Notes: a model not told the origin generated them from the sequence alone. A stretch of DNA of 17,757 bases from Planctomycetota bacterium (GCA_038213805.1 JBBQSO010000103.1:1-17757); one strand, 5' to 3'; positions 263 through 14,988 are shown, counted from the stretch's first letter. Numbers and translations: made by a program.

Positions 263-1072
263 TCACCCACCAAGTAGCCGCCGGCGCAGCAGCATGGTCG
301 CCAGCGGCATGGTGACGGCGAGCAGCACGCCGCTGCTGAGCAGCATCCACAGCACGTGCAGGTCGGGTTCACCCAGGATTGCCAGCGCCCGGGCGCTCTC
401 GGCGAGGTGGTGCACCGGGTTGATGGCGAGCAGCAGGCGCACCAGCGGATGGCCCTCGGGCACCGGGAAGTAGGTGCTGCTCACCAGGCTGAGGGGGATG
501 GCGAGCAGGAAGGCCGGCAGGTTCATGTGGTCGATGCTGGGCAGGACCGCGGTGAAGGTCAGCGCAAAAGAGGCCATCGCGCAGCCCATCACGAACACCA
601 GTGGCAGCACCAGCGGCAGCAGCAGCGGGTGCGGCAGGTGCAGCACCCCACAGGCGTCGAGGGCGAGGATCACGGCCACCACCGCGCCAACGAACATCGT
701 GCCCATGGTGCCGCCCCACAGGATCTCGCCCGCCACCATGTGTGGCAGCTCGACCTGGGTGGCAAGCAGGCCGTCGTACAGGCGTTGGTAGTGCATGCGC
801 ACGTAGGCGCCCCACAGCGCGTGGAAAAACGGTGCGTTGAGCGCGGTGTAGGCGCACAGACCGGGGGCCAGGTAGGTGAGGTAGGGCAGCGTCTGGCCGT
901 GCCAGACCAGCGCGCCGATGAAGCCGCCCAGGCCGAGGCCGAAGGCGAGCATGGCGACCACCGGCTCCATCGCCGGCGGCATCATGCCGATGTACCAGGT
1001 GCGCAGGTAGACGCGCGCGTGGCGGCGCATCACCGCCCACGAGCGCCAATCGGCGAGGGCGAGCAGGATCAT
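263..1072 (-). CDS. ABC-2 type transporter permease (NodJ-like)
   Basis: About six hydrophobic segments; EPVVAMLAFGLGLG, YLTYLAPGL, YVRMHYQRLYDGLLAT, GEILWG, SSTYFP and NPVHHL motifs. ATG at 1072-1070 overlaps the ATPase stop (ATGA), so the ORF-track start at 1234 is too long. Confidence 0.9.
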   Translation of the reverse strand: MILLALADWRSWAVMRRHARVYLRTWYIGMMPPAMEPVVAMLAFGLGLGGFIGALVWHGQTLPYLTYLAPGLCAYTALNAPFFHALWGAYVRMHYQRLYDGLLATQVELPHMVAGEILWGGTMGTMFVGAVVAVILALDACGVLHLPHPLLLPLVLPLVFVMGCAMASFALTFTAVLPSIDHMNLPAFLLAIPLSLVSSTYFPVPEGHPLVRLLLAINPVHHLAESARALAILGEPDLHVLWMLLSSGVLLAVTMPLATMLLRRRLLGG

Positions 1073-2031
1073 GGCGCACGCCCCGCGTGCGCCGCCGCGC
1101 TGGCGGCGCCCTCGCCGTCGCGTGCGAGCTTGAGGAAGAGGTCGTCGAGGGTCGGCTCGCGCAGGCGCAGGGCCAGCGCGGGGAAGGCGGCGGCGAAGGC
1201 GGCGAGCTGCGCGGCGCGCAGCGGCAGGTGCCACTCATCCATGATCGGCGCCGGGGTCGAAGCCTTCGCGGCGCGCAGCCACGCCGCGATGCGCTCCTCC
1301 AGTACGGCGTCGCCAGCGGTGGCGTAGACCGCGACGTGCTCGCCCAGCACCGCGCCAAGCAGCGTGCGCGGTTGCCCGCGTGCGGTGATACGGCCCTCGG
1401 CGAGCACCAGCAGTTCGTCGCTCAGGCGCTCGGCCTCGTCCATGTAGTGGGTGGTCAGGATGATGCCCAGGCCCTCGCCGCGCAGGCGGTTGACCAGCTG
1501 CCACAGCGCCACGCGCGCCTGCGGGTCGAGACCAGTGGTGGGTTCGTCGAGGAACAGCACGCGCGGCCGGTGCACCACCGCGCGCGCGATCATCAGCCGG
1601 CGGCGGAAGCCGCCCGAGAGCTCTTCGGGGCGGTGGCCGGCGAAGGGGCGCAGGCCGAAGGTGTCGAGCAGCTCGTCGACGCGCGCGTGCAGGTCATCCA
1701 CTCGCGGCCGGAAATAGCCGGCGTAGCGCAGCAGATTCTCGGCGACCGGGAACTCCTGATCGAGGGTGTCCTCCTGGCTGCAGATGCCCAGCATGCGCTT
1801 GGTCGCGCTGCGCGCCGTGCTGAAATCCCGCCCGAAGTAGCTGATGGTGCCCGCGTCCGGGGCGATGAAGCCGCTGAGCATGCGCAGGGTGGTGGTCTTG
1901 CCGGCGCCGTTCGGCCCGAGCAGTCCCAGCACCATGCCCGCGCGCAGCTCGACCCCGACCCCGTCCACCACCCGCCGCCCAGCGAAATGCTTCACCAGAC
2001 CGGTGGCTTCGAGGAGCAGGTCGGACGCCAT
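1069..2031 (-). CDS. ABC transporter ATP-binding protein (NodI/DrrA-like)
   Basis: Walker A GPNGAGKTT, signature LSGGFRRRL, Walker B VLFLDEPTTGLDP, H-loop TTHYMDEAE and C-terminal REPTLDDLFL. Likely start MASDLLLEA at 2031. Confidence 0.93.
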   Translation of the reverse strand: MASDLLLEATGLVKHFAGRRVVDGVGVELRAGMVLGLLGPNGAGKTTTLRMLSGFIAPDAGTISYFGRDFSTARSATKRMLGICSQEDTLDQEFPVAENLLRYAGYFRPRVDDLHARVDELLDTFGLRPFAGHRPEELSGGFRRRLMIARAVVHRPRVLFLDEPTTGLDPQARVALWQLVNRLRGEGLGIILTTHYMDEAERLSDELLVLAEGRITARGQPRTLLGAVLGEHVAVYATAGDAVLEERIAAWLRAAKASTPAPIMDEWHLPLRAAQLAAFAAAFPALALRLREPTLDDLFLKLARDGEGAASAAAHAGRAP

Positions 2032-2227
2032 GGGCGGGAGGCTAGGGAGGGGGCGGCAGTGCGGAAGCCGGGAAGCCGGAAAGCGTCTCCCATGCATGCG
2101 TCCCATGCGCCCAGGAACATCTGGAAAGCGGCGGGGACGACCGCATCGTCCGTAGCGATATCCGGGCTCCCGTCCTGGGTGCCTCGACGCCTTCCGCCCG
2201 CCCCCGCCCCTGCCATCGGATCCGCGC

Positions 2228-4024
2228 ATGCCCATCGTCACCGCCAAGACCGCCCAGCCCGCATATGATGTCGTCATCGTCGGCTCTGGCGCCGGTGGCG
2301 GGCAGATGGCGATGACCCTGACCCTGGCCGGACTGAAATGCGTGATGCTCGAGGCCGGTCGCGCCTACGACCCGGCCACCGAGACGGCGATGTTCCAGCG
2401 CCCCGACCAGGCGCCGCTGCGCGGGGTCGGCACGCCCGAGAAGAATTTCGGCTTCTACGATGCCACCGTCGACGGCGGCTGGCAGGTGCCGAACGAGCCC
2501 TACACCCAGGGCAGCGACGACCCGGCGCGCAAGTTCTGGTGGTGGCGCGCGCGCATGCTTGGCGGCCGCACCAACCACTGGGGGCGCATCTCTCTGCGCA
2601 ACGGTCCCTATGACTTCAAGCCGCACAGCCGCGATGGGCTGGGCTTCGACTGGCCGATCGGTTACGAGGACGTCGAGCCGTACTACACCAAGGTCGAGCA
2701 ACTGATCGGCGTGTACGGCACCAACGAGGGCCGCGAGAACACTCCGGACTCGCCCGATGGCGTGCTGCTGCCTGCGCCCAAGGGGCGCGCGGCCGAGCTG
2801 CTGGTGCAGAAGCATGCGAAGACCGTGGGCGTGCCAGTGATGCCCATCCACCGCGCGGTGCTGACCAAGGCGCTCGACGCGGACACCATCCCTGCCAAAC
2901 TCTTCCCCGGCAACGAGTGGGCGCAGAAGATCGTCGCTGATTCGATGCGTCGGCGCGGCGCGTGCTTCTGGGCGACACCGTGTGGCCGCGGCTGCAGCAT
3001 CGGCGCCAATTACCAGAGCACGACCGTGCACCTGCCGCCGGCGCTGGCCACCGGCAACCTCGACATCCTGCCCAATGCCCACGCGCGCGAAGTGCTGCTG
3101 GGCGCCGACGGCAAGGCCAACGGCGTGCTGTTCGTCGACAAGACCACCGGCAACGAGGAGCGTGTGCGCGGGCGCATCGTCATCCTTGCGGCGAGCAGCG
3201 GCGAGACCGTGCGCATCCTGCTGAACTCCAAGAGCGCGTCCTTTCCCAACGGCCTGGCCAACAGCAGCGGCAAGGTCGGCAAGTACGTCATGGACACGGT
3301 CGGCACCAGTCTGGTCGGCCAGATCCCCAAACTCGAGAACGTGCCGTCACACAACGAGGACGGCGCCGGTGGCTCGCACTTCTACTCGCCGTGGTGGCTC
3401 TATAAGGAGCAGCTCGCCGGCAAGCTCGGCTTCGCACGCGGCTACCACATCGAGATGGGCGGCTCGCGCGACATGCCGGGCGGCTGGAACCCGCTGCCCG
3501 ACGACCTCGGCCAGGGCGCCTACGGCACCAAGTTCAAGGAGGCCGCGCGCCGTTACTACGGCTCATTCGTCTACCTCAGCTGCCGTGGCGAGATGATCCC
3601 GAACGAGGACTCCTTCGCGGAGCTCGACCCGGTGGTCAAGGATAAGTGGGGCACCCCGGTGATCCGCTGGAACTGGAAGTTCAGCGAGCACGAACTGCGC
3701 CAGGCGGACCACGCCCAGGATACCTTCACCGCGATCTTCGCGGCCATGGGCGGCACAGTCCGCCGCGCCAAGCCCAAGACCGGCACCGAGATCGAGCCCG
3801 GCGGCAAGATCATCCACGAGGTCGGCGGCGCGCTGATGGGCGCCGATGCGAAGCGCTCGGTGGTGAACGGCTGGAACCAGACCTGGGACGTGAAGAACCT
3901 GTTCCTGGTCGATGCTTCGCCGTTCCCGTCGAACTCCGACAAGAACCCGACCCTGACCATCATGGCGCTCGCCTGGCGCACCGGTGACTACATCGTCGAC
4001 CAGGCGAAGAAGGGGAATATCTGA
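2228..4024 (+). CDS. GMC-family FAD-dependent oxidoreductase, large subunit (sugar/glycoside dehydrogenase-like)
   Basis: YDVVIVGSGAGG dinucleotide-binding motif, LGGRTNHWGR flavin loop, CFWATPCGRGC cysteine cluster, and C-terminal His/Asn pair (IIHEVGG...KNPTLTIMALA). Confidence 0.93.
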   Translation: MPIVTAKTAQPAYDVVIVGSGAGGGQMAMTLTLAGLKCVMLEAGRAYDPATETAMFQRPDQAPLRGVGTPEKNFGFYDATVDGGWQVPNEPYTQGSDDPARKFWWWRARMLGGRTNHWGRISLRNGPYDFKPHSRDGLGFDWPIGYEDVEPYYTKVEQLIGVYGTNEGRENTPDSPDGVLLPAPKGRAAELLVQKHAKTVGVPVMPIHRAVLTKALDADTIPAKLFPGNEWAQKIVADSMRRRGACFWATPCGRGCSIGANYQSTTVHLPPALATGNLDILPNAHAREVLLGADGKANGVLFVDKTTGNEERVRGRIVILAASSGETVRILLNSKSASFPNGLANSSGKVGKYVMDTVGTSLVGQIPKLENVPSHNEDGAGGSHFYSPWWLYKEQLAGKLGFARGYHIEMGGSRDMPGGWNPLPDDLGQGAYGTKFKEAARRYYGSFVYLSCRGEMIPNEDSFAELDPVVKDKWGTPVIRWNWKFSEHELRQADHAQDTFTAIFAAMGGTVRRAKPKTGTEIEPGGKIIHEVGGALMGADAKRSVVNGWNQTWDVKNLFLVDASPFPSNSDKNPTLTIMALAWRTGDYIVDQAKKGNI

Positions 4025-4734
4025 TGCCCACTCACGAGCTGCCCGCGCCCTTCGATCCCGGCCTGCCCGAGCGCATGCCCGATCCCGCCATCCGCCTGCC
4101 GCGCCGCACCGTGCTCAAGTGGTTCGCCGCGGCGGCTGCGGCCAGCCAGGTGGCGGGCTGCCTCGACCGCTCCGGTCCCGGCGGCATGGCGCCGATCACC
4201 GCGCCGGGCTATGGCACCGATCCGCTGCTGACGCGCGTGTACAAGGCCGGCGACGCATGGCCGCTGACGCTGACCGAGGCCGAGCGCACGGCGAGCGTCG
4301 CACTCGCCGACTTCATCATGCCCGCCGACGCCTACGGCCCCGCGGCCTCGAAGCTGCGCGTGGTCGACTTCATCGACGAATGGGTCAGTGCGCCCTACCC
4401 CGGACAGATGAATGATCGCAAGATCATCGTCCCGGGCTTGGCCTGGCTCGAAAGCGAATCGCGCCGGCGCTACGGTGCCGCTTTCACCACTCTCGCCGCT
4501 GCCCAGATGGATGGCATCTGCGCCGACATCTGCTTCGAGAAGAACGCCACCGAGCCGTTCAAGGCCGGGGCGCGCTTCTTCTCGGTGTTCCGCGGACTCA
4601 CCGCTGGCGCCTACTATTCCACCCCCGCGGGCTGGAAGGCGATCGGGTACGAAGGCAACGTGCCACTGCCGAAGTTCGACGGTCCGCCGCCCGCGGTGCT
4701 GGCGATGCTTGAGGTCGAACAGACGGTCAAGTAA
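4024..4734 (+). CDS. Gluconate 2-dehydrogenase subunit 3 family protein (Tat-signal small subunit, possible lipoprotein)
   Basis: TGATG coupling to the GMC gene with an AAGGGGA SD; twin-arginine PRRTVLK, Ala-rich h-region and VAG-C; LADFIMP, VVDFIDEW and GAYYSTPAGWKAIGYEGN motifs. Alternative start at 4075. Confidence 0.88.
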   Translation: MPTHELPAPFDPGLPERMPDPAIRLPRRTVLKWFAAAAAASQVAGCLDRSGPGGMAPITAPGYGTDPLLTRVYKAGDAWPLTLTEAERTASVALADFIMPADAYGPAASKLRVVDFIDEWVSAPYPGQMNDRKIIVPGLAWLESESRRRYGAAFTTLAAAQMDGICADICFEKNATEPFKAGARFFSVFRGLTAGAYYSTPAGWKAIGYEGNVPLPKFDGPPPAVLAMLEVEQTVK

Positions 4735-4882
4735 GGCGCTGGCAGCTCCCATCTCTGCGAGATCTGCTCACAGCCGTGCGCAGTGCACGGTCCGCCGATC
4801 GCTCGAATCCATGCGCGACTCGGTGAGCCTCAGTACCGGTGCTGCGCAGGTCTGGTCGACCAATGCAGGTCGCGTCCCGGTT

Positions 4883-5098
4883 TCATCCATCCGGTCCAGG
4901 GGCGCGCGGGTGATGTTCGACCGGAACCACATCCCCTTGCTCCGTCTGGGATTGTGCCCCACTCGCCCCGTCGGCCAGGGCGCCATGAGCGTAAGCTTCG
5001 GCCTGTTCGCGGTTGCAGAAGATGTGCTGAGCGCCGCCATGCATGCGCACGTGCCAGCCGTCGGTATGCCGCTCGATGATGAAGGCCTCGGTAGCCAT
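4883..5098 (-). CDS. Small protein (71 aa), DUF2188-like
   Basis: Strong SD (CCAAGGAGACCGCC-ATG) before MATEAFIIERHTDGWHVRMHGGAQHIFCNREQAEAYA; the GWxV...FxxxxxAxxxA pattern resembles DUF2188. Divergent from the sigma gene. Confidence 0.65.
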   Translation of the reverse strand: MATEAFIIERHTDGWHVRMHGGAQHIFCNREQAEAYAHGALADGASGAQSQTEQGDVVPVEHHPRAPGPDG

Positions 5099-5214
5099 GG
5101 CGGTCTCCTTGGTGGTTGCAACCGGAGTGAGCACATGGCGATCCACATGACCGCGCGCCGCTCTGAATAAACACGGGCGCGGTCTCGACACTATGCTGGA
5201 GGGGCGAGGACGGC

Positions 5215-7446
5215 ATGGCACCCAGCGACCAGACGCTCCTCGACAAGTTCGCCAGCACCCGTGACGGGGGCTGCTTCGCGGAGCTGGTGCGTCGCCACAG
5301 CGGCATGGTCTATGGCGTCTGCCGGCGCGTGCTGCGCGATGGCGCGCTCGCCGAGGATGCGGCCCAGGAGACCTTCCTGCTGCTGATGCGCCAGCCGGCC
5401 GCGGTCAGCGAATCGGTGGCGGGTTGGCTGCACCGGGTCGCCCACCGCAAGGCTGTCGACCTGGTGCGGCGCGAGGTCGGCCACGCGCGCCGTGTGCAGC
5501 CGGTAGCGCCGGTCGGCGAGGACGAGCCGACCTGGGCGACGCTCAGTCCGCTGCTCGACGAGGCGCTGCAGGAGTTGCCAGAGGACCTGCGCCGCATCCT
5601 GGTCGGCCACTACCTGGAGGCGCGCGGTCAGCAGGAGCTGGCCGAGGAACTCGGCATCTCGCAGCCCACCGTCAGCCGGCGGTTGGCCGCTGGCGTGGCG
5701 CAGCTGCGCAGCCTGCTCATGGCCAAGGGCGTGGTCTCGGCGGTGTTGATCGCCAGCCTGCTCCACGGCTCCGTGTGCGCGGCGGCGCCCGCCACCCTGA
5801 CTGTGGAACTGGGCAAGATGGCGCTGGCCGGCCAGGCCGGATTGGGCCTGGGCGTGGCGAAGGTCGGCACGGCCGCGGCGAAGACCGGGCTCGTCGTCAA
5901 GGCGATGTGGCTGGCAGTGGCGGCGCTGGTGGTTCTCGCAAGCGCAGGCGCAGTGGTGCGCACATGGATCGGCCAGCGAATCGACTCCGCTACCGCGGCA
6001 GACTGGCGTTTCATCGCGCCCGGTCTGCCGGCGCAGGTCCCCGCACCCGCACCCGCGCCGCCCAGCGACGTCCTTGGCGAAGACGGACCTGCGCATCTGC
6101 TCGCGCTCACCCGCCTCGGCGGTGCGGGCGATGACGAGATCGTCGGCGTGGCGATCGCACCCGACTGGACGGTGCTGGTCGCCGGTAATGCCGCGCAGCC
6201 GGTGCCGGCGAGTGCGCCCGTCACGTCGATCGGTATTGCTTCGATCTCTATCGGGCGCAGCGGCTTCATCGCGCGCTACGCGCCTGATGGACGCACTCTG
6301 CTCAGCTGCGCGCGCGCTCCCGCTGGCGCGACCTTCACGTGCGTGCGCAGCGACGCGCGTGGCGACCTGCTGGTGGCCGGCCTCAGCGACGATGGCTGCG
6401 ATCTCGGCGGTGGTCCGGGGCGTGGCGGCTTCATCGCCAAGCTCAGCGTCGCCACCTGTCTACCGTTGTGGATCCTCTACCAGGACGGCATCGTCGACTA
6501 TGCGACCGCTGCGCAGGGCGATCTGCTGGTGCTGCGCGCGTCGCGATTGACGCGCTACGACAGCGCCACCGGCGCGGCGCGCTGGAGCGTAGGCTGGCCG
6601 GCGCGCGGTCCCGACCATCCCCAGGCGCTCGGTCTAGAGCCAAGTAGCGGCATCGCGGTGGTCGCGGGCGCAAGCGCGGGGGCGACCGGCGACGAGACCT
6701 TCATGGACCCCTACGCGCGCGCCTTTGCGCCTGACGGGCGACCGATCTGGACGCTGTGGGATGCCGAACCGGCGCGCGTGCGCAGCGGCGACGGCGGGCT
6801 GCACCTGACCGCCGAGGGTGCGGGCCAACGCATCGTCGCGGTCGATGGCGCGCTGCTGCTGGCGATGTCCAGCAGCGGCGGCAACAGCGTGCTCGCGCAT
6901 GATGTCCACGACCCGGCGCGCGCGCCCGCTGCGGAGTTGCTCGCGGACGTGCACCAGGCTGGGCCGGGCTTCGGCTTCCGCGGCGCCACGCCGGTGGCCA
7001 CGCTGCTGCTGGTCGAACCCGGCGCCGGTGCGGTCGCGAAGCAGACCTGGCTCAGCGCCTGGAGCGATCCCGCCCACGCCGGCGCCTGGGCGGTCGCGGA
7101 TGTCGCCGCCGACGCCGGCCGCATCTGCGCCGTCGGGCGCAGCGCGGCGGGCGGGCCAACGCGCGCCGCGTGGGTCGCGGCCGACGGCCAGCCGGGCGGC
7201 GCCATCGCGCTGTGCGATGCGCGCCTGCGGCTCCTGCAGGCCGGCACCTTTCCCGGTGCGCGCTGGACCTGTACCGCGCTGCGCGGTGGATTGCTGGTGG
7301 TCGGGGGCACGGTCAGCGCCGCAGCGGCACACACGCATCACGCGGTGCAGGCCGCGCCGGGCGGCGGCCAGGACGGCTACCTCGCGGTCTTCGCCATCGC
7401 TGCAGTCCCGTCGTCCACGAACCCTTCCGCCGGGACCTCGCCATGA
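5215..7446 (+). CDS. ECF sigma-70 factor with membrane anchor and long C-terminal beta-propeller-like extension (ECF57-like architecture)
   Basis: Region 2 (SDQTLLDKF..FAELVRRHSGMVYGVCRRVL..AEDAAQETFL..GWLHRVA), region 4 HTH (LPEDLR..QQELAEELGISQPTVSRRL), hydrophobic segments near 5728-5790 and 5899-5958, a Pro-rich linker, then an SBBP-like LGGAGDD...GGGQDGYLAVF domain. GGAGG/GAGGA SD upstream. Confidence 0.9.
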   Translation: MAPSDQTLLDKFASTRDGGCFAELVRRHSGMVYGVCRRVLRDGALAEDAAQETFLLLMRQPAAVSESVAGWLHRVAHRKAVDLVRREVGHARRVQPVAPVGEDEPTWATLSPLLDEALQELPEDLRRILVGHYLEARGQQELAEELGISQPTVSRRLAAGVAQLRSLLMAKGVVSAVLIASLLHGSVCAAAPATLTVELGKMALAGQAGLGLGVAKVGTAAAKTGLVVKAMWLAVAALVVLASAGAVVRTWIGQRIDSATAADWRFIAPGLPAQVPAPAPAPPSDVLGEDGPAHLLALTRLGGAGDDEIVGVAIAPDWTVLVAGNAAQPVPASAPVTSIGIASISIGRSGFIARYAPDGRTLLSCARAPAGATFTCVRSDARGDLLVAGLSDDGCDLGGGPGRGGFIAKLSVATCLPLWILYQDGIVDYATAAQGDLLVLRASRLTRYDSATGAARWSVGWPARGPDHPQALGLEPSSGIAVVAGASAGATGDETFMDPYARAFAPDGRPIWTLWDAEPARVRSGDGGLHLTAEGAGQRIVAVDGALLLAMSSSGGNSVLAHDVHDPARAPAAELLADVHQAGPGFGFRGATPVATLLLVEPGAGAVAKQTWLSAWSDPAHAGAWAVADVAADAGRICAVGRSAAGGPTRAAWVAADGQPGGAIALCDARLRLLQAGTFPGARWTCTALRGGLLVVGGTVSAAAAHTHHAVQAAPGGGQDGYLAVFAIAAVPSSTNPSAGTSP
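6115..6189 (+). repeat. Diverged direct repeat, copy 1 (start of the duplicated domain; copy 2 at 7605-7679)
   Basis: Hand count gives 59/75 identical nt and 20/25 identical aa (LGGAGDDEIVGVAIAPDWTVLVAGN vs LGGAGDDEVVAVGIAPDWSILVAGN). Confidence 0.9.
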
Positions 7447-8984
7447 TCCGCCTACACCCGTCCCGCCTCGCCACTGCCACCATGCTCGCGTTGACCGCAG
7501 CCTGCGGCATGGGCGCCGCCGAGGCGCACACGCCGCTCGCTGAACCGGCGGCGCCGGCTGACGCGCTGGGCAGCGGCGTGGCGCAGTTGCTGAGCGCCAC
7601 GCCACTCGGCGGTGCGGGTGACGACGAGGTGGTCGCGGTCGGCATCGCGCCCGACTGGTCGATACTGGTCGCGGGCAACTGCGTCGACCTGCCGCTGGCC
7701 GGCGTGCCGGACACGCTCATCGGCCCGGCCGGCACGCGCGTCGATCCCCCGCCGGCGGATCCCAAGACCAAGGGTCGCCCGCAACCGAGCAGCCATGGCT
7801 ACATTTTGCGCCTGACGAGCGATGGCCGCAAGGCGCTCGCGCTGACCCGTTTCGGCTATGGCGCTGCGACCATCCAGCAGATGCGCAGCGATGACCAGGG
7901 CGAGGTCTACATCGCCGGTACCAACCTTATCGGCGCGGCGCTCTCACCCGGAGCGACGCCCGGGCGCTTCGTCGCGAAGCTCGCGCCAGACCTGCGCTCC
8001 TGCGCATGGGTGCTGCCCATCGAGGGCCTCAGCGATTTCGCCATCGATGGGAATGGCGACGTAGTCGCGCTCGCCAACAAGTCGCTGACGCGCTACGCCG
8101 CTGGCAGCGGCAAGCCCCTGTGGACCGCGACCTGGGCGACGCATGGTGACAACCGGCCCGGCGCAATGACCCTGGCGAGCGGCAGCGGCATCACGGCGGT
8201 GGTCGGCTATGGTATGACCAAGACCGGGCACGAGCCCTACAAGGACCCGTACGCCTACGCCTTCGACCGCGCCGGCAAGCAGGTGTGGGCGGCGTGGAAT
8301 CCGGACCCGACCAAGGAGTGCGACGCCAAGTTCGGCGGCAACGGCCTGATGGCCGACACCACCGGCCACGCCGCCGCGGCGACCAGCGACGGCAAGATCA
8401 TGCTCATGCTCTACGCCGACGGCGGCAACACCGTGTGCATGCGCGATCCCGCCGATCCCGGGCAGCCGCTCGATCCGGCGGTGCTCGCCGGCGTCCACCA
8501 AGCGGGCGCCGGCTACGGCTTCAAGGGGGCGAGCAAGACCAGCGTGATCGTACGCTTCGACGCGGTCAGCGGGCGGATCGAGAAGAGCACCTGGATGAGC
8601 GCCTGGCTGAATCCTCAGCACGCCAACGGACTGTCCATCGACGGCGCCAGCGGCGATGCGCGTTGCACCGCGGTGGTCGGCAACAGTGCCAATGGCTGCC
8701 CGCTCAAGGACCCATGGTACCCGTTCATCGAGGGCACTTACCGCGGCGGCGGCTTCCTCGCGCTCTTCGACCGCGGCTTTGCGCTGCAGCAGTGCGGCTA
8801 CTTCGCGCATGCGCACCTCGCGGCGATCGCCATGCGCGGCGACTGCGTCGTGGTCGGCGGGTCGGTGCGACCGGAGGCCGGTCCGGATGGCGAAAAGGAT
8901 CCGATCAAGCTCCATCATGCGGTGCAGTCGACGCTCGGCGGCGATCAGGACGGCTATGTGGTGGTGCTGCGCCGTGAACACTGA
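7443..8984 (+). CDS. Secreted beta-propeller-like protein (SBBP-like ends), paralog of the sigma factor's C-terminal domain
   Basis: ATG 7443 overlaps the sigma stop (ATGA). Signal-peptide-like start MIRLHPSRLATATMLALTAACGMGAAEA. TPLGGAGDDEVVAVGIAPD and AVQSTLGGDQDGYVVVL resemble SBBP propeller blades. Confidence 0.8.
   Translation: MIRLHPSRLATATMLALTAACGMGAAEAHTPLAEPAAPADALGSGVAQLLSATPLGGAGDDEVVAVGIAPDWSILVAGNCVDLPLAGVPDTLIGPAGTRVDPPPADPKTKGRPQPSSHGYILRLTSDGRKALALTRFGYGAATIQQMRSDDQGEVYIAGTNLIGAALSPGATPGRFVAKLAPDLRSCAWVLPIEGLSDFAIDGNGDVVALANKSLTRYAAGSGKPLWTATWATHGDNRPGAMTLASGSGITAVVGYGMTKTGHEPYKDPYAYAFDRAGKQVWAAWNPDPTKECDAKFGGNGLMADTTGHAAAATSDGKIMLMLYADGGNTVCMRDPADPGQPLDPAVLAGVHQAGAGYGFKGASKTSVIVRFDAVSGRIEKSTWMSAWLNPQHANGLSIDGASGDARCTAVVGNSANGCPLKDPWYPFIEGTYRGGGFLALFDRGFALQQCGYFAHAHLAAIAMRGDCVVVGGSVRPEAGPDGEKDPIKLHHAVQSTLGGDQDGYVVVLRREH
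7605..7679 (+). repeat. Diverged direct repeat, copy 2 (copy 1 at 6115-6189)
   Basis: Same alignment as copy 1. A second anchor lies at 7336-7380 vs 8913-8957 (HHAVQAAPGGGQDGY vs HHAVQSTLGGDQDGY). Confidence 0.9.
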
Positions 8985-9058: not shown

Positions 9059-10159
9059 ATGCTTCCACTTCGTACGACCACGCAGCTCCTCGCCTGCGCC
9101 CTGCTGCTCATGTCGCCGGCGGCGCCCGGCGCGGCGCAGGCCACCGAAGCAGCCGCGACGCGCGATCCCTGGCTGTGGCCCTTCGCCGCCACGTCGATCT
9201 GGAACCAGCCGCTGGGCAACAGCGCGGTCTACCGGCCGGCGCACCTCAGCGCCGCCGCGCATGTCGGCGTCGACATCCAGCACCTGCTGCGCCTGAATCC
9301 GCAGGACCCCGACCGCCACGTGCTGGGCAGCACGACCTTCGGTCAGGGGCGCGCGGCGGGCACCGTCGACCTCGGCTTCACGCTCAATGTGCCCGATGCC
9401 TGGGTGGTGCCCGACGCCGGTCCAGGCAATCCGTACGGGTTGACACCGAACAGCAATTTTGCGCTGCTGATGCCGGATGGTGAGCAGGTCATGCAGGGCT
9501 GCCAGATCACCCGCGCCGCCGCCAGCGGGCCGGTGCACGTGCCCGAGTGGCTGCGTTGGTCGGCCAACCGGCCGCTGGTTTCGATCCGCGGCGACGGACT
9601 GGAGGGTGGCGGTCAGGGCGCCTCGCACATGTCGTCGCTGGGCGGCACCATCCGCCTGCACGAACTGGTCGGCGATGCGCCCATCCGCCACGCGCTCAAA
9701 ATCAATCCCTTCGCCGCCCGCTGGTGCCATTATTCCGCCGCCGTGCCCGGCTGGCGCTGGCCGGCGCGGGGCGCGGACAGCTATGCGGCGACCGGCTACC
9801 ACGGCCAGGATCCTGCACTGGTGATGGGCAGCCTGCTCGCGATCCCGCCGCAAGATTCGGCCGCCAAGCTTGGGCTCGTCACCGCCCCCGGCCGCAAGCT
9901 GTTCGCAGCGCTGCAGGACTATGGCATGTATGTCGTCGAGGACGCGGCCTGGGACACCTGGGACCTCATCGTCGAGCGCGGTGCGGAGCAGGAATTCGCG
10001 ACCGCCTACGGTTTTTCCATGGACAGCCCGGCGTGGCGCGACGAGGTCAATCGCCTGATGGTCGCCTTGGCCATCGTCGACAACAATGGCCCAGGGCACA
10101 TCGGCGGCGGCGGGACGCCGCGCCGGCCGCTGGCGCCGCCCTTCGCCGTGCTGCGCTGA
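9059..10159 (+). CDS. Uncharacterised secreted protein
   Basis: AGGAG SD, signal peptide (LLACALLLMSPAAPGAAQA), GC3-rich codons and globular motifs WPFAATSIWNQPLG, SSLGGTIRLHEL, IRHALK and LQDYGMYVVED. Confidence 0.82.
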   Translation: MLPLRTTTQLLACALLLMSPAAPGAAQATEAAATRDPWLWPFAATSIWNQPLGNSAVYRPAHLSAAAHVGVDIQHLLRLNPQDPDRHVLGSTTFGQGRAAGTVDLGFTLNVPDAWVVPDAGPGNPYGLTPNSNFALLMPDGEQVMQGCQITRAAASGPVHVPEWLRWSANRPLVSIRGDGLEGGGQGASHMSSLGGTIRLHELVGDAPIRHALKINPFAARWCHYSAAVPGWRWPARGADSYAATGYHGQDPALVMGSLLAIPPQDSAAKLGLVTAPGRKLFAALQDYGMYVVEDAAWDTWDLIVERGAEQEFATAYGFSMDSPAWRDEVNRLMVALAIVDNNGPGHIGGGGTPRRPLAPPFAVLR

Positions 10160-10350
10160 ACCGGAGCAGTGCGGGGTGCCGTACCCTGGGTTGGTGCGGG
10201 TGCGCTCGACATCGGGTTTGCACCCCGCCGTCGCGCCGACACGCTGATTGGGATGAACATCGTCACTGCTCTGCTCGCTGATATTCCGTCGCCTCAGGAC
10301 AGCGGCGGGTGGGCCGCACGGTCAGTGGCCCGTGCCCAGGGCGTGCGCCT

Positions 10351-11985
10351 ATGAACCCCGTCCTGATCGGCATCGGCTTCATCCTGCTGATCGTGGCGGC
10401 GATGCGTCTGGCAGCCTACCGCCTCGTGCGCGGCGCCTCGCTGCGCGAGCCGCACACCGTGCTGGCAGGTGCCGAGGAAATTCCCGCCGCCCTGCGCCAG
10501 GAACTCGACGACGGGCTGGTCACGCTCCTGCCGCTCGGCTTCCAGGCGCGTGGGTACATCCGTTCGCTGTGCATGGTCGCCGACGACCCTCGGCCGGTGT
10601 GGTCTGCGCTTGCGGAGCAGGTGCAGCATGGGACATGGGTCGCGGTCTTCGCCAACTTCAGTCCAGAGGCCGAGGTGCCGCTGCGCGCGACATTTCTCAC
10701 GCCCTTGGTGGATGGCCGGGCGCTGCTCTCGGCCGAAAGCTCGTTCCTTTCGCTCCCGGTCCCCTACGCGGATGCCGTTTTGCTCGATCACGGCGAGCTC
10801 GACATCGTCGCGAGCGGGCGGCGGCACCTCGCCGAACTGAGCCGGCACCAGCTCGCGAGCCCCTTCCCCGACGCGGCGGCCTGCATCGCCCGCCTCGCAG
10901 CGCTCGACGCCGCCTACCTGCCGATGCTGCGTGCGCGCAAGCTGGTCGCCACCGATGCGGCGGGCCGGACGCGTTTCACGCCCGCCGCGGCGTGGGCCTA
11001 TCTGGGACGCATCCGCAGCGGTCAGGCCGTCCAGGTGCGCGCGCTGGCCGCCTTGCGCAAGCAACGTGGTGGTGCGCGCAGCGTGGTGCCCGCGGCCATC
11101 GAGGCCGACGCCGTGCTGCGCCAGGAGGAGATGAGCGAACGCCGCGTGCCCGCCGGATCGTGGGTGTGGATGTTCCTGCTCACCATGCTGGCCTTCATCG
11201 CGACGGCGCCGCTGGCCATCGGCAGCAACATCCCGGTGCCCCTGATCCTCGCCATCCTGCTGTTCCATGAATTCGGCCACTTCCTGGCCATGCGCGCCTG
11301 CGGCTACCGCGATACGCGCATCTTCTTCCTGCCGTTGTTCGGCGCCGCCGCCAGCGGCCGCAAGAAGGACGCCACCATTCCGCAGCAGGTGTTGGTCAGC
11401 CTGATGGGACCGCTGCCGGGCATCGTTCTCGGACTGGCGCTGCTCGCCGCGGTCCACACCGACCGTGGCAGCCCGCTGTTCCAGGCCGGCCTGATGCTGG
11501 TCGCCATCAACCTCTTCAATTTGCTGCCGGTGCTGCCCCTCGACGGCGGCCAGATCCTCTGCCGCGTGCTGTTCGCGCGCCGCCCGTGGCTGGACCTGGT
11601 GTTCCGCGCGCTCGCCGCGGTGGCGATGGTCGCGCTCGGGCTGGCCACCTCGCCGATCCTCATCTACCTCGGCATCTTCCTCGCCATCGGTCTGGTCCAC
11701 CACCGCCAGATCGCGCGCCTGCGCAGCCGCATCATGCGCGACCCGGCCATCGCCGGTCTGGTCGGCGAGCCGCTGACCGAGGCGGTCAGCGCCGCGGTGG
11801 CGCAGGACCCCGTCACCGGGCGAGCGCTCTTCCCCCAACGTCTGCGCATGGTCCGTGACATCACCGCCGCGCTCGCCCAGCCGCGCATCACCACCGGGAC
11901 GCGCGTGGCGCTGCTCGGCGCCTACGTGGGCGCATTCCTGCTGGCGCCGGCGGCGCTGCTGATCTGGCGGTTGGCCCACCACTGA
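10351..11985 (+). CDS. Site-2 protease family (peptidase M50) intramembrane zinc metalloprotease with N-terminal extension
   Basis: ILLFHEFGHFLAM (HExxH), FFLPLFGAA, VSLMGP and NLFNLLPVLPLDGG (third zinc ligand Asp). An N-terminal TM helix and a soluble region of about 240 aa precede the protease core. ATG 10351 is preferred over GTG 10309. Confidence 0.92.
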   Translation: MNPVLIGIGFILLIVAAMRLAAYRLVRGASLREPHTVLAGAEEIPAALRQELDDGLVTLLPLGFQARGYIRSLCMVADDPRPVWSALAEQVQHGTWVAVFANFSPEAEVPLRATFLTPLVDGRALLSAESSFLSLPVPYADAVLLDHGELDIVASGRRHLAELSRHQLASPFPDAAACIARLAALDAAYLPMLRARKLVATDAAGRTRFTPAAAWAYLGRIRSGQAVQVRALAALRKQRGGARSVVPAAIEADAVLRQEEMSERRVPAGSWVWMFLLTMLAFIATAPLAIGSNIPVPLILAILLFHEFGHFLAMRACGYRDTRIFFLPLFGAAASGRKKDATIPQQVLVSLMGPLPGIVLGLALLAAVHTDRGSPLFQAGLMLVAINLFNLLPVLPLDGGQILCRVLFARRPWLDLVFRALAAVAMVALGLATSPILIYLGIFLAIGLVHHRQIARLRSRIMRDPAIAGLVGEPLTEAVSAAVAQDPVTGRALFPQRLRMVRDITAALAQPRITTGTRVALLGAYVGAFLLAPAALLIWRLAHH

Positions 11986-13812: not shown

Positions 13813-14988
13813 ATGCGCACCACCATCCTGCCCACCGCCCTCCTTACCCTGGCCTGCCTGATCGGCCTGGCCGCCTACGCAGAGGACGGTATCCACGACC
13901 TGAAGATCGGCGACGCCGCGCCGGACTTCTCGCTGCCGGGCATCGATGGCAAGACCCACGTGCTGGCCGAATACCAGGCGGCCAAGGTGCTGATGGTCGC
14001 CTTCCTCTCCAATCACTGCCCCGACTCCCACGCCGCCGAGAAGCGCATCATCGCCCTGGTCGACGCTGCCAAGAATCAGGGCTTCGCACTGGTCGCGATC
14101 AACCCCAACAACCCCGACGGCCTCAGCCTCGACGAGCTCGGCTACTCGAAGTACAACGACGGTTTCGAGGACATGAAGAAGTACGCGGTCGAGGCCGGAT
14201 TCACCTTCCCCTACCTCTACGACGGCGAAACGCAGGCGGTGGCCAAGGCCTATGGCTGCCTGGCCACGCCACACGTGTTCGTCTTCGACGCGCAGCGCAA
14301 GCTGCGCTACAAGGGCCAGTTCGATGACTCGCGCTTCCTCGACCCCGCGACGGTGAAGTCCAACGACGCGCGCAAAGCGGTCGAGGCGCTGCTCGCCGGC
14401 ACACCGGTTCCGGTCGAGACCACGCGCCCGCACGGCTGCTCGACCAAGTGGCTGGGCAAGAAGGAGGTGATCGCCAAGCTCACCGAAAAGTGGCAGCACA
14501 CCCCGGTCGACATCGAGCCGATCACCGCAGCCCAGGTCAAGGCGCTGGTCAAGAACGGCACCAGCAAGCTGCGTCTGTTCAACGTCTGGTCGACCAGCTG
14601 CATCCCGTGCGTCGCCGAGTTCCCGGAACTGGTCACCACCGCGCGCAAGTTCGGCATGCGCGACTTCGAGTTCATCTCGATCAGCCTCGATGACCCTACG
14701 GATACCGCCAAGGCCAAGGCCTTCCTTGAGAAGCAGGGTGCTGGTCCGCTCGACAGCGCGCAGCGCGCCTTCAAGGCCGAGGGCCGCACCACCAACAGCT
14801 ACCTCTTTGCCGGCGCCGACGCCAATGAGCTGGTCGCCGCGCTCGACCCCGCCTGGCCCGGCGCCATGCCGCACACCGTCCTGGTCGGTCAGGACGGCAC
14901 CATCCTGTGGCGGCACACCGGCGCGATCGACGGCGACGAGCTGCGCGCGAAGATCCTCGAGATCCTGGGTGACGTCTACAAGCCGTGA
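13813..14988 (+). CDS. Exported tandem thioredoxin-fold redoxin (AhpC/TSA-like domain plus TlpA-like domain)
   Basis: Signal peptide; LKIGDAAPDFSLPGIDGK, FLSNHCPDS, FPYLYDGETQ, ATPHVFVFD and GCSTKW; second domain NVWSTSCIPCVAEFP...AMPHT. Confidence 0.92.
   Translation: MRTTILPTALLTLACLIGLAAYAEDGIHDLKIGDAAPDFSLPGIDGKTHVLAEYQAAKVLMVAFLSNHCPDSHAAEKRIIALVDAAKNQGFALVAINPNNPDGLSLDELGYSKYNDGFEDMKKYAVEAGFTFPYLYDGETQAVAKAYGCLATPHVFVFDAQRKLRYKGQFDDSRFLDPATVKSNDARKAVEALLAGTPVPVETTRPHGCSTKWLGKKEVIAKLTEKWQHTPVDIEPITAAQVKALVKNGTSKLRLFNVWSTSCIPCVAEFPELVTTARKFGMRDFEFISISLDDPTDTAKAKAFLEKQGAGPLDSAQRAFKAEGRTTNSYLFAGADANELVAALDPAWPGAMPHTVLVGQDGTILWRHTGAIDGDELRAKILEILGDVYKP

Follow-up and report, generated by a model that had tools for sequence, protein, structure and literature searches.

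The window analysed here is the whole of a 17.8-kb contig (JBBQSO010000103.1:1-17757, assembly GCA_038213805.1; GC content roughly 70%) from a planctomycete metagenome-assembled genome. At positions 5215 to 8984 it contains a gene for an extracytoplasmic function (ECF) sigma factor whose long C-terminal extension is a degenerate, full-length paralog of the probably secreted protein encoded by the next, overlapping gene. The two copies share a beta-propeller fold and are both under purifying selection, and it is the fused copy that has lost many of the residues conserved in the rest of the family. The locus may be a two-gene operon encoding a one-component sigma factor that signals across the membrane, together with a secreted paralog of the domain that would serve as its sensor, a reading to which we give a probability of about 0.5. 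The features of the locus are:

5163..5189 (+), candidate ECF-type promoter, CTGAATA-16 nucleotides (nt)-CGAC, ending 25 nt 5' of the sigma factor ATG
5215..7446 (+), ECF sigma factor gene with a predicted membrane-spanning C-terminal extension, 743 amino acids (aa) (open reading frame (ORF), TIGR02937)
5284..5709 (+), sigma2 (residues 24-87) and sigma4 (residues 114-165) (Pfam)
5728..5901 (+), conserved linker after sigma4, residues 172-229, with hydrophobic helix GVVSAVLIASLLHGSVCAAA and then a PATLxxELGKMALAGQ motif
5902..5958 (+), predicted transmembrane (TM) helix, residues 230-248, AMWLAVAALVVLASAGAVV (Kyte-Doolittle 2.36)
6031..7392 (+), degenerate seven-bladed beta-propeller, residues 273-726 (BLASTP against the product of the next gene, AlphaFold2 (AF2))
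7443..7446 (+), ATGA stop/start overlap (ATG of the free gene at 7443, TGA of the sigma factor gene at 7444-7446)
7443..8984 (+), gene for the free beta-propeller, predicted to be secreted, 513 aa, the conserved copy (ORF, AF2, match to CylK)
7443..7526 (+), signal-peptide-like N-terminus of the free protein, residues 1-28, MIRLHPSRLATATMLALTAACGMGAAEA (sequence inspection)

Homology of the sigma factor extension to the adjacent gene product

BLASTP aligned residues 273-726 of the sigma factor (nt 6031-7392) with residues 28-509 of the free protein in a single colinear segment, in which 181 of 483 positions were identical (37%, E = 1e-84) and 30 were gap positions. An earlier reading of this DNA, referred to here as the original prediction, had described such an end-to-end similarity, and every anchor string that it listed was present in the alignment. 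It placed the extension at about 6094-7404, coordinates that are correct except for about 60 nt missing at the 5' end. The ATGA coupling to the next gene was also as described there, and the pair was kept as a two-gene module in three further lineages of the same genus. These were the only two copies of the family in their own genome, which is 90% complete. The fused propeller shared 54-56% identity with its fused counterparts in two sister genomes, 41% with a free protein (P0005) and a fused protein (P0013) of other organisms, and 37-40% with its own neighbour. Judged from these identities, the adjacent free copy does not clearly appear to be the closest relative of the window's fused domain.

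The N-terminal part of the protein matched the sigma70-ECF model TIGR02937 (E = 1.8e-22, 79.7 bits, cut-off 42.9) and the Pfam models Sigma70_r2 (E = 1.1e-13) and Sigma70_r4_2 (E = 1.1e-10, residues 114-164). No match to sigma region 1 or region 3 was found with Pfam, as is expected of an ECF (group 4) sigma factor. The start, MAPSDQ, was kept in relatives. In the AF2 model, predicted confidence (pLDDT) was mostly 81-95 over residues 1-170, and below 50 in the loop between sigma2 and sigma4 (residues 94-105). The overall description in the original prediction, that of an ECF-type sigma factor bearing hydrophobic helices and, as a long extension, a propeller paralogous to the product of the next gene, was supported.

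The propeller part of neither window protein was matched by any Pfam or NCBIfam model. Across the family there were weak Pfam matches to DUF5122 (10 of 69 sequences), PQQ_2 (8 of 69), and SBBP (6 of 69, best E = 7.9e-4); neither window protein matched SBBP (PF06739) at E 0.01 or better, and SBBP clusters were among the Atlas neighbours at 0.90-0.91. When a 69-homolog profile was searched against the sequences of the PDB, no match at E 1 or better was returned. The AF2 model of the free propeller, made with the 69-homolog alignment, was all-beta with a pLDDT of 90.2 and a predicted TM-score (pTM) of 0.90, and the fused copy was modelled as the same propeller at residues 263-728 with a pLDDT of mostly 84-97. 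The best structural match to the free model was the Friedel-Crafts alkylase CylK (PDB 7ron), both in Foldseek (E = 3.8e-16, 13% identity) and in a second search independent of Foldseek (Z 30.9 over 362 residues, root-mean-square deviation 3.2, 16% identity), followed by YncE (Z 27.2) and generic WD40 propellers (Z 25-27). These superpositions covered model residues 43-513 at Z 25-31, as would be expected of a seven-bladed propeller. According to the models, the domain is a distinct, uncharacterised seven-bladed propeller family that can only loosely be called 'SBBP', the label used in the original prediction. Only residues 249-654 of CylK were matched, and the N-terminal domain of CylK is absent from the free protein, which has only its leader ahead of the propeller. 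A common function with CylK cannot be inferred.

Distribution of the family and forms of the locus

The family was found in Planctomycetota and Verrucomicrobiota. A search of 1.84 billion cluster representatives returned 73 proteins at E 1e-30 or better; scores fell sharply after about 20 clusters (50% identity) above 360 bits. A scan of genome contigs with the single protein returned only one locus, that of a 94% relative, and a genome search was used in its place. Four groups of proteins were distinguished. Group A consisted of free proteins 62-66% identical to the window's free protein, and each one with upstream DNA (from the window, genomes G001 and G004, and three G004-type metagenome contigs) was preceded by a sigma-fused copy with the same overlap. 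The CCATGA junction was common to the window, G001, and G004/L049. In genome G010, the closest to the window, the two genes were on separate short contigs, so that their adjacency was not visible. Group C was made up of the fused copies of the tandem loci, which were 34-40% identical to the free protein and 50-56% identical to each other. Group B contained 14 sigma-fused proteins (711-768 aa) and those of genomes G007 and G002. The group B propellers were 51-61% identical to the window's free protein, closer to it than the window's own fused copy is. G007 and G002 each contained one fused gene without a second copy, and no free copy was found within 5 kb downstream of the fused gene in locus L053. 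Group D consisted of stand-alone secreted proteins at 38-53% identity, found in both phyla.

Fusion to a sigma factor was narrowly distributed. Sigma-fused forms were found in six of the ten other genomes of the window's genus and in none of the 37 genomes from the other genera of the order. No sigma factor was encoded within 5 kb in any of the 13 other metagenome loci, those neither tandem nor fused, three of which were short fragments, and none of 16 loci with distant open frames of the same family (570-860 aa, other genera) was sigma-fused. When 22 long representatives were scanned, sigma domains were found only in P0107 (C type), P0108, and the distant P0196. An apparently 'free' protein within the single-fused clade, P0010, was rejected as a truncated gene call beginning in the linker. 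Because the flanking genes were not common to the lineages, the gene pair itself is the unit.

Unequal conservation of the two copies

The 69-sequence family alignment contained 30 invariant and 65 near-invariant positions; E264, D305, D326, N329, Q353 and the loop 353-363 of the free propeller are among the invariant ones. Fused copies from tandem loci kept 21-23 of the invariant and 30-39 of the near-invariant residues (23 and 39 in the window's copy), while single-fused propellers kept means of 29.9 and 61.4, and the free proteins of tandem loci 30 and 62.5. P0108 (750 aa), an early branch of the degenerate clade (support 100/99), kept 21 of the 30 invariant residues, and many of its substitutions were unlike those of group C. 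A second set consisted of the 99 positions conserved in at least 90% of the other 88 sequences. Over these, the four C-type copies all kept 46, had a common new residue at nine, and varied at 44; the same test found no fixed changes in either group A or group B. Several conserved loops, such as the HQxGxGxGFxGA motif, were retained in the fused copy. The original prediction proposed that the regulator would sense the ligand that its target binds; since constraint has been lost at about half of the family's conserved sites, it should not be assumed that the fused copy has an identical ligand specificity.

The C-type copies also differed in composition, with 2 lysines versus 9-30 and 17-20% alanine versus 9-14%, and the window's C-type propeller lies in the most GC-rich part of the window (6501-7500, GC 0.756). 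In the maximum-likelihood (ML) tree the stem of group C was 1.47 substitutions per site, about nine times the 0.17 of group A, and later paths were about twice as long. Ratios of nonsynonymous to synonymous substitution (dN/dS) were obtained for one genome pair, the window and G010, over 173 codons in the case of the fused propeller:

sigma domain, dN/dS 0.117
linker and TM helix, dN/dS 0.196
fused propeller, codons 273-445, dN/dS 0.275
homologous part of the free copy, dN/dS 0.143

The ratio for the free propeller gene was 0.132. The reading frame of the fused propeller (about 470 codons) was intact in all six lineages in which it was seen. The fused copy is not a pseudogene and, like the free copy, is under purifying selection.

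Linker, membrane helix and topology

The linker that follows sigma4 was homologous across all fused forms and in paralogous sigma factors of the window's own genome. AF2 confidence was low there (pLDDT 31-61, with residues 173-226 of low confidence), and a single long helix was modelled at residues 227-258. The segment at 230-248 was the only one that was hydrophobic in every fused form, and the loop preceding it is rich in lysine and net positive (four K, one E). Inspection of the free protein's leader by eye showed positive charge in the n-region, a run of hydrophobic residues and the motif AEA, and comparable hydrophobic leaders were present in all 34 homolog N-termini examined (6 from clade A and 28 from clade D). 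An arrangement with the N-terminus inside, a single TM helix and the propeller outside the membrane is favoured because free homologs carry export leaders, because the invariant residues are kept in single-fused forms, and because the loop is Lys-rich; judged from these sequence features, the propeller is probably extracytoplasmic.

Upstream motif and candidate protease

A motif of the form [CG][TC]G[AC]AT[AG]-N16-CGAC was present at the equivalent upstream place in seven of seven loci of the B and C types (the window, G010, G001, G004, G007, G002, and L052), the flanks of which were otherwise diverged. This motif is a candidate for the sigma factor's own promoter. It would lie in a very tight divergent region, since the start of a divergent ORF is only 66 nt from the sigma factor start. 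In a genome-wide count the strict motif occurred 27 times at a spacing of 16, versus 9-13 times at spacings of 14, 15, 17 and 18, and 18-33 times at spacings of 7, 10, 13, 19, 22 and 25. A regulon based on these counts was rejected, as the excess at spacing 16 reflects codon-phase periodicity. No terminator-like site was found on the coding strand within the gene pair or directly 3' of it.

Genes for M50 site-2 proteases were present at three loci of the genome, and the one in the window begins 1.3 kb beyond the 3' end of the sigma/propeller pair, in the same orientation. Its product is a candidate protease for release of the sigma factor. In 10 related loci tblastn did not find this gene close to the module, so the adjacency is lineage-specific.

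Order of fusion and duplication

Groups A, B and C formed one clade against group D in the ML tree (100/99). Within it, ML trees placed A as the sister of C with B outside (85/66, and 87/62 after P0107 and P0108 were added). This topology fits a single ancestral fused gene that gave rise to a free copy at a later stage, opposite to the order in the original prediction, which had the effector gene duplicated and then fused to the sigma factor. That order is neither established nor rejected: the single-fused relatives are intact and the ML tree suits the reverse, and approximately unbiased (AU) tests reject neither an A+B clade (p 0.158) nor an all-fused B+C clade (p 0.398). Across all four groups the N-terminal regions are colinear, which gives no means of telling the orders apart. 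With neither alternative rejected and the N-termini uninformative, fusion first is only slightly ahead.

The alternative is that a free secreted gene was ancestral in the genus and was duplicated, the upstream copy being fused to a sigma-TM module to give the tandem pair. Single-fused genomes would later have lost the free copy, which would have forced the fused copy to stay conserved; the function of the present locus would be the same. Free forms are widespread and the older state, with clade D in both Planctomycetota and Verrucomicrobiota, and the homologous sigma factor, linker and WR(F/M)xxP junction in all fused forms make a single fusion parsimonious. The tree with an all-fused clade is only 0.92 log-likelihood units worse (AU p 0.398), and planctomycetal ECF extensions have been proposed to originate when duplicated sigma2-sigma4 regions take up adjacent genes (Pinto et al. 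2020, PMC7671368). Against this order, the free copies of tandem loci group with the degenerate fused ones in the ML trees, where the single-fused forms stay outside (85/66, 87/62), and an extra loss of the free copy is needed in the single-fused lineage. We regard it as a real possibility, though short of probable.

Further back in time, derivation of the fused gene from a free member of the family would agree with the proposal of Pinto et al. (2020) that planctomycetal ECF extensions were captured from adjacent or disrupted genes (PMC7671368). The capture proposal is consistent with three sigma factors of the window's own genome that have the same linker and unrelated extensions, one of them with a free homolog. 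The paralogy of sensor and effector is plausible, and the direction of origin may be the reverse of that first suggested.

Proposed mechanism and alternative explanations

We infer the topology, proteolytic release, autoregulation and division of roles in what follows from the features described above. The sigma factor would consist of cytoplasmic sigma2 and sigma4 domains, the conserved linker, one TM helix and an extracytoplasmic seven-bladed propeller, and would be kept inactive at the membrane. Perception of a signal by the propeller would result in regulated proteolysis, in which a site-2 protease would cleave within the TM helix, and the freed sigma factor would drive its own conserved upstream promoter. 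By analogy with IutY, SCO4117 and the release proposed for ECF57, regulated proteolytic release appears to be the most likely mode of activation. Because of the ATGA overlap, we propose that the free propeller is made together with the sigma factor; it would perform the extracytoplasmic function of the family, enzymatic or binding. The fused propeller, a degenerate copy with the fold and part of the conserved loops, would act only as a sensor or regulatory module, so that the tandem pair would represent a division of labour after duplication. One protein can apparently carry both roles, since sister lineages have a single fused gene with a fully conserved propeller. A more specific history, which we put forward tentatively and consider rather doubtful, is that an ancestral bifunctional, enzyme-like periplasmic propeller gated its own sigma factor and was split by duplication into a secreted working copy and a degenerate, sensor-only pseudo-enzyme copy controlling its transcription.

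Several observations weigh against the two-gene signalling operon. The upstream motif had no genome-wide support, and no anti-sigma domain (FecR-N or zinc finger) was found in residues 171-272 by Pfam or NCBIfam. Nothing in the genomic context of the family was common across groups. All tandem loci come from one event, so that the association of a free copy with degeneracy in the fused one has n = 1, and the dN/dS values come from the single genome pair given above. The variability of the degenerate copies at 44 of the 99 conserved positions fits relaxation better than a new defined function. With regard to topology, the first hydrophobic segment (residues 172-191) reached a 19-residue Kyte-Doolittle maximum of 2.01 in the window protein, 2.03 in G001 and 2.34 in the single-fused P0016; two TM helices would place the propeller in the cytoplasm, and published ECF57 extensions have about two (Supplementary Text S2, PMC7826278).

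A cytoplasmic propeller, unable to sense what its secreted paralog meets, would agree with the two hydrophobic segments of the window protein (2.01 and 2.36) and with the ECF57 extensions (PMC7826278). It is nevertheless quite improbable: the first segment fell below 1.5 in 12 of 16 single-fused orthologs, which have D, Q or H in it, the rest of the family is secreted, the loop between the segments is net positive, and every invariant residue, the invariant Cys332 among them, is kept in the single-fused propellers. Lower still is the probability that the fused propeller is a functionless, decaying relic, with the sigma factor controlled in some other way and the resemblance to the neighbour only historical. 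Decay would account for the 44 variable positions and for the drift to GC-rich codons seen in the lysine and alanine contents and in the GC of 0.756 over 6501-7500, but not readily for a frame of about 470 codons intact in six lineages, a dN/dS of 0.275, 46 of 99 positions kept in all four copies with nine common new residues, or a confident AF2 fold. Another possibility is that the free propeller is a regulatory partner, forming a periplasmic heteromer with the fused propeller and controlling cleavage as a co-sensor, protector or decoy, so that the two proteins would be a split sensor. The position immediately downstream (+1) and the four-nucleotide overlap, in three of three tandem lineages, are usual for ECF regulators (PMC7826278); translational coupling suits a stoichiometric complex, and conserved loops such as HQxGxGxGFxGA are retained in the fused copy. 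This possibility is unlikely, as the free copy keeps all the residues conserved in stand-alone members that have no nearby sigma factor, and hence appears to be under the ordinary constraints of the family.

Comparison with known systems

The original prediction likened the sigma factor to the ECF57 type. As in that group, the sigma factor is planctomycetal, which the source names of the family members bear out, and has a long C-terminal extension with hydrophobic or TM helices, which in some ECF57 members includes a WD40-like propeller (Casas-Pastor et al. 2021, PMC7826278). The group also has no separate anti-sigma factor, and release from the membrane has been proposed for it (PMC7826278). 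One of its published defining features is a fully conserved pair of cysteines, one in sigma2 and one in sigma4 (PMC7826278). Unlike ECF57, compared here by its published description rather than by group models, the window's sigma factor has C36 in sigma2 and no cysteine in sigma4. Cysteine was absent from residues 107-170 of the window's sigma factor and from sigma4 of six other fused forms. The sigma factor agrees with ECF57 in its phylum and departs from it in the sigma4 cysteine. In addition, no tandem free paralog is described for ECF57 in the available part of the source, and ECF57 promoter motifs are reported not to be conserved, whereas the motif at this locus is (PMC7826278).

The extensions treated by Pinto et al. 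(2020) resemble this one in having homologs in a stand-alone gene family from within the phylum, but the available part of that paper describes neither an adjacent coupled paralog nor an asymmetric decay of the fused copy (PMC7671368). Among fused sigma/anti-sigma proteins, IutY (ECF243) and SCO4117 (ECF52) are activated by proteolysis, IutY through Prc and RseP (PMC8999054). Like the sigma factor in the window, they combine an N-terminal ECF sigma factor, one or more membrane spans and an extracytoplasmic sensing domain in one polypeptide (PMC8999054); unlike them, the window's protein has no detectable FecR-like or zinc-finger domain, and the phylum and sensor fold differ. The RsgI anti-sigma-I factors of Clostridium thermocellum carry sensor modules of the same domain kinds as the secreted proteins they regulate, and pass on the signal through cleavage by RseP (PMC10328401, PMC12203970, PMC6852018). 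In RsgI systems, unlike here, the sensor is carried by a separate anti-sigma factor and has no single neighbouring target gene of which it is the tandem paralog.

A sensor that is a paralog of its target is known from transport, a logic that RsgI sensors recall more loosely. UhpC is a homolog of the transporter UhpT. In E. coli UhpC is the membrane receptor that induces uhpT (PMC13507172). As proposed here, the sensor is a diverged paralog of the regulated protein and is encoded beside it; the Uhp system differs in its use of two-component signalling, in consisting of transporters, and in having no sigma-fused propeller.

The original prediction knew of no description of such an arrangement, and the literature searched contained no paper on an ECF sigma factor extension paralogous to the product of an adjacent gene, although Table S3 and Figure S3 of Pinto et al. 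(2020) may hold similar cases. We did not find in that literature a coupled tandem free paralog, an asymmetric decay of the fused copy, or co-existing undivided single-gene relatives.

ECF sigma factors whose extensions span the membrane are numerous in planctomycetes. We know of none among them with a demonstrated mechanism. The present locus offers a small testable case, in which the sensor is from a defined secreted family, the presumed target is the adjacent paralog, and undivided relatives are available for comparison. It would illustrate at the level of residues how a degenerate copy of a protein can come to serve as the sensor that controls it. If the tentative history of a bifunctional propeller split by duplication is true, the single-fused and tandem forms would be paired systems for the study of how an ECF sigma factor reads an extracytoplasmic enzyme domain without an anti-sigma factor. 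The reach of this is limited to one genus of uncultured bacteria, in which the arrangement was found. The propeller family, conserved and uncharacterised (about 20 clusters at 50% identity), is a starting point for finding the ligand.

Neighbouring genes and other observations

The other genes identified in the window were:

263-2277 (-), ABC-2 permease and ATP-binding cassette (ABC) ATPase, at the left end
2228-4734 (+), GMC-family flavin adenine dinucleotide (FAD) oxidoreductase (598 aa), then, after a 1-nt start/stop overlap, a gluconate 2-dehydrogenase subunit-3-like protein
4768-5148 (-), small divergent ORF, 126 aa, without a Pfam match, kept in G010
9059-10159 (+), protein with a clear signal-peptide-like leader, 366 aa, with a GGAGA Shine-Dalgarno sequence and without a Pfam or NCBIfam match
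10309-11985 (+), Peptidase_M50 (site-2 protease) membrane protein, 558 aa (E = 1.4e-15; HEFGH and LDG motifs)
13813-14988 (+), AhpC/TSA-redoxin family protein

At several places in this GC-rich window antisense ORFs exceed the real genes in length, so that length is no sure guide to which ORF is the gene. The gene for the 366-aa protein, 75 nt 3' of the free propeller gene, may be cotranscribed with the latter, in this genome only. The pair encoding the GMC oxidoreductase and subunit-3-like protein adjoined the sigma factor gene elsewhere only in G010.

Next to the single-fused genes, at two of two loci, the following gene on the same strand encoded a LigB-type extradiol dioxygenase subunit (L034 2569-3375, E = 3e-30; L035 10261-11088, E = 6.5e-35). 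Some stand-alone members were encoded directly 3' of PEP-CTERM-anchored proteins of 1030-1560 aa (L057 68-4747, L058 85-4299, L059 106-3195), L057 and L058 being probably from one species.

The three sigma factors of the window's own genome mentioned above are at C45 19810-21681 (-), C31 12947-14197 (-) and C40 29946-31418 (+). All three have the linker, with its RRGVxV... hydrophobic helix, and a second hydrophobic helix, and carry extensions unrelated to that of the window. For the C45 extension, contig C98 encodes a free homolog, non-adjacent and 31% identical over 272 aa; among the sigma factors of this genome that have this linker, only that of the window has a paralog next door. Finally, the distant P0196 (821 aa) consists of an ECF sigma factor (Sigma70_r2 and r4_2), a hydrophobic helix and a distant relative of the propeller (23-28% identity), which suggests an independent sigma-propeller fusion elsewhere.

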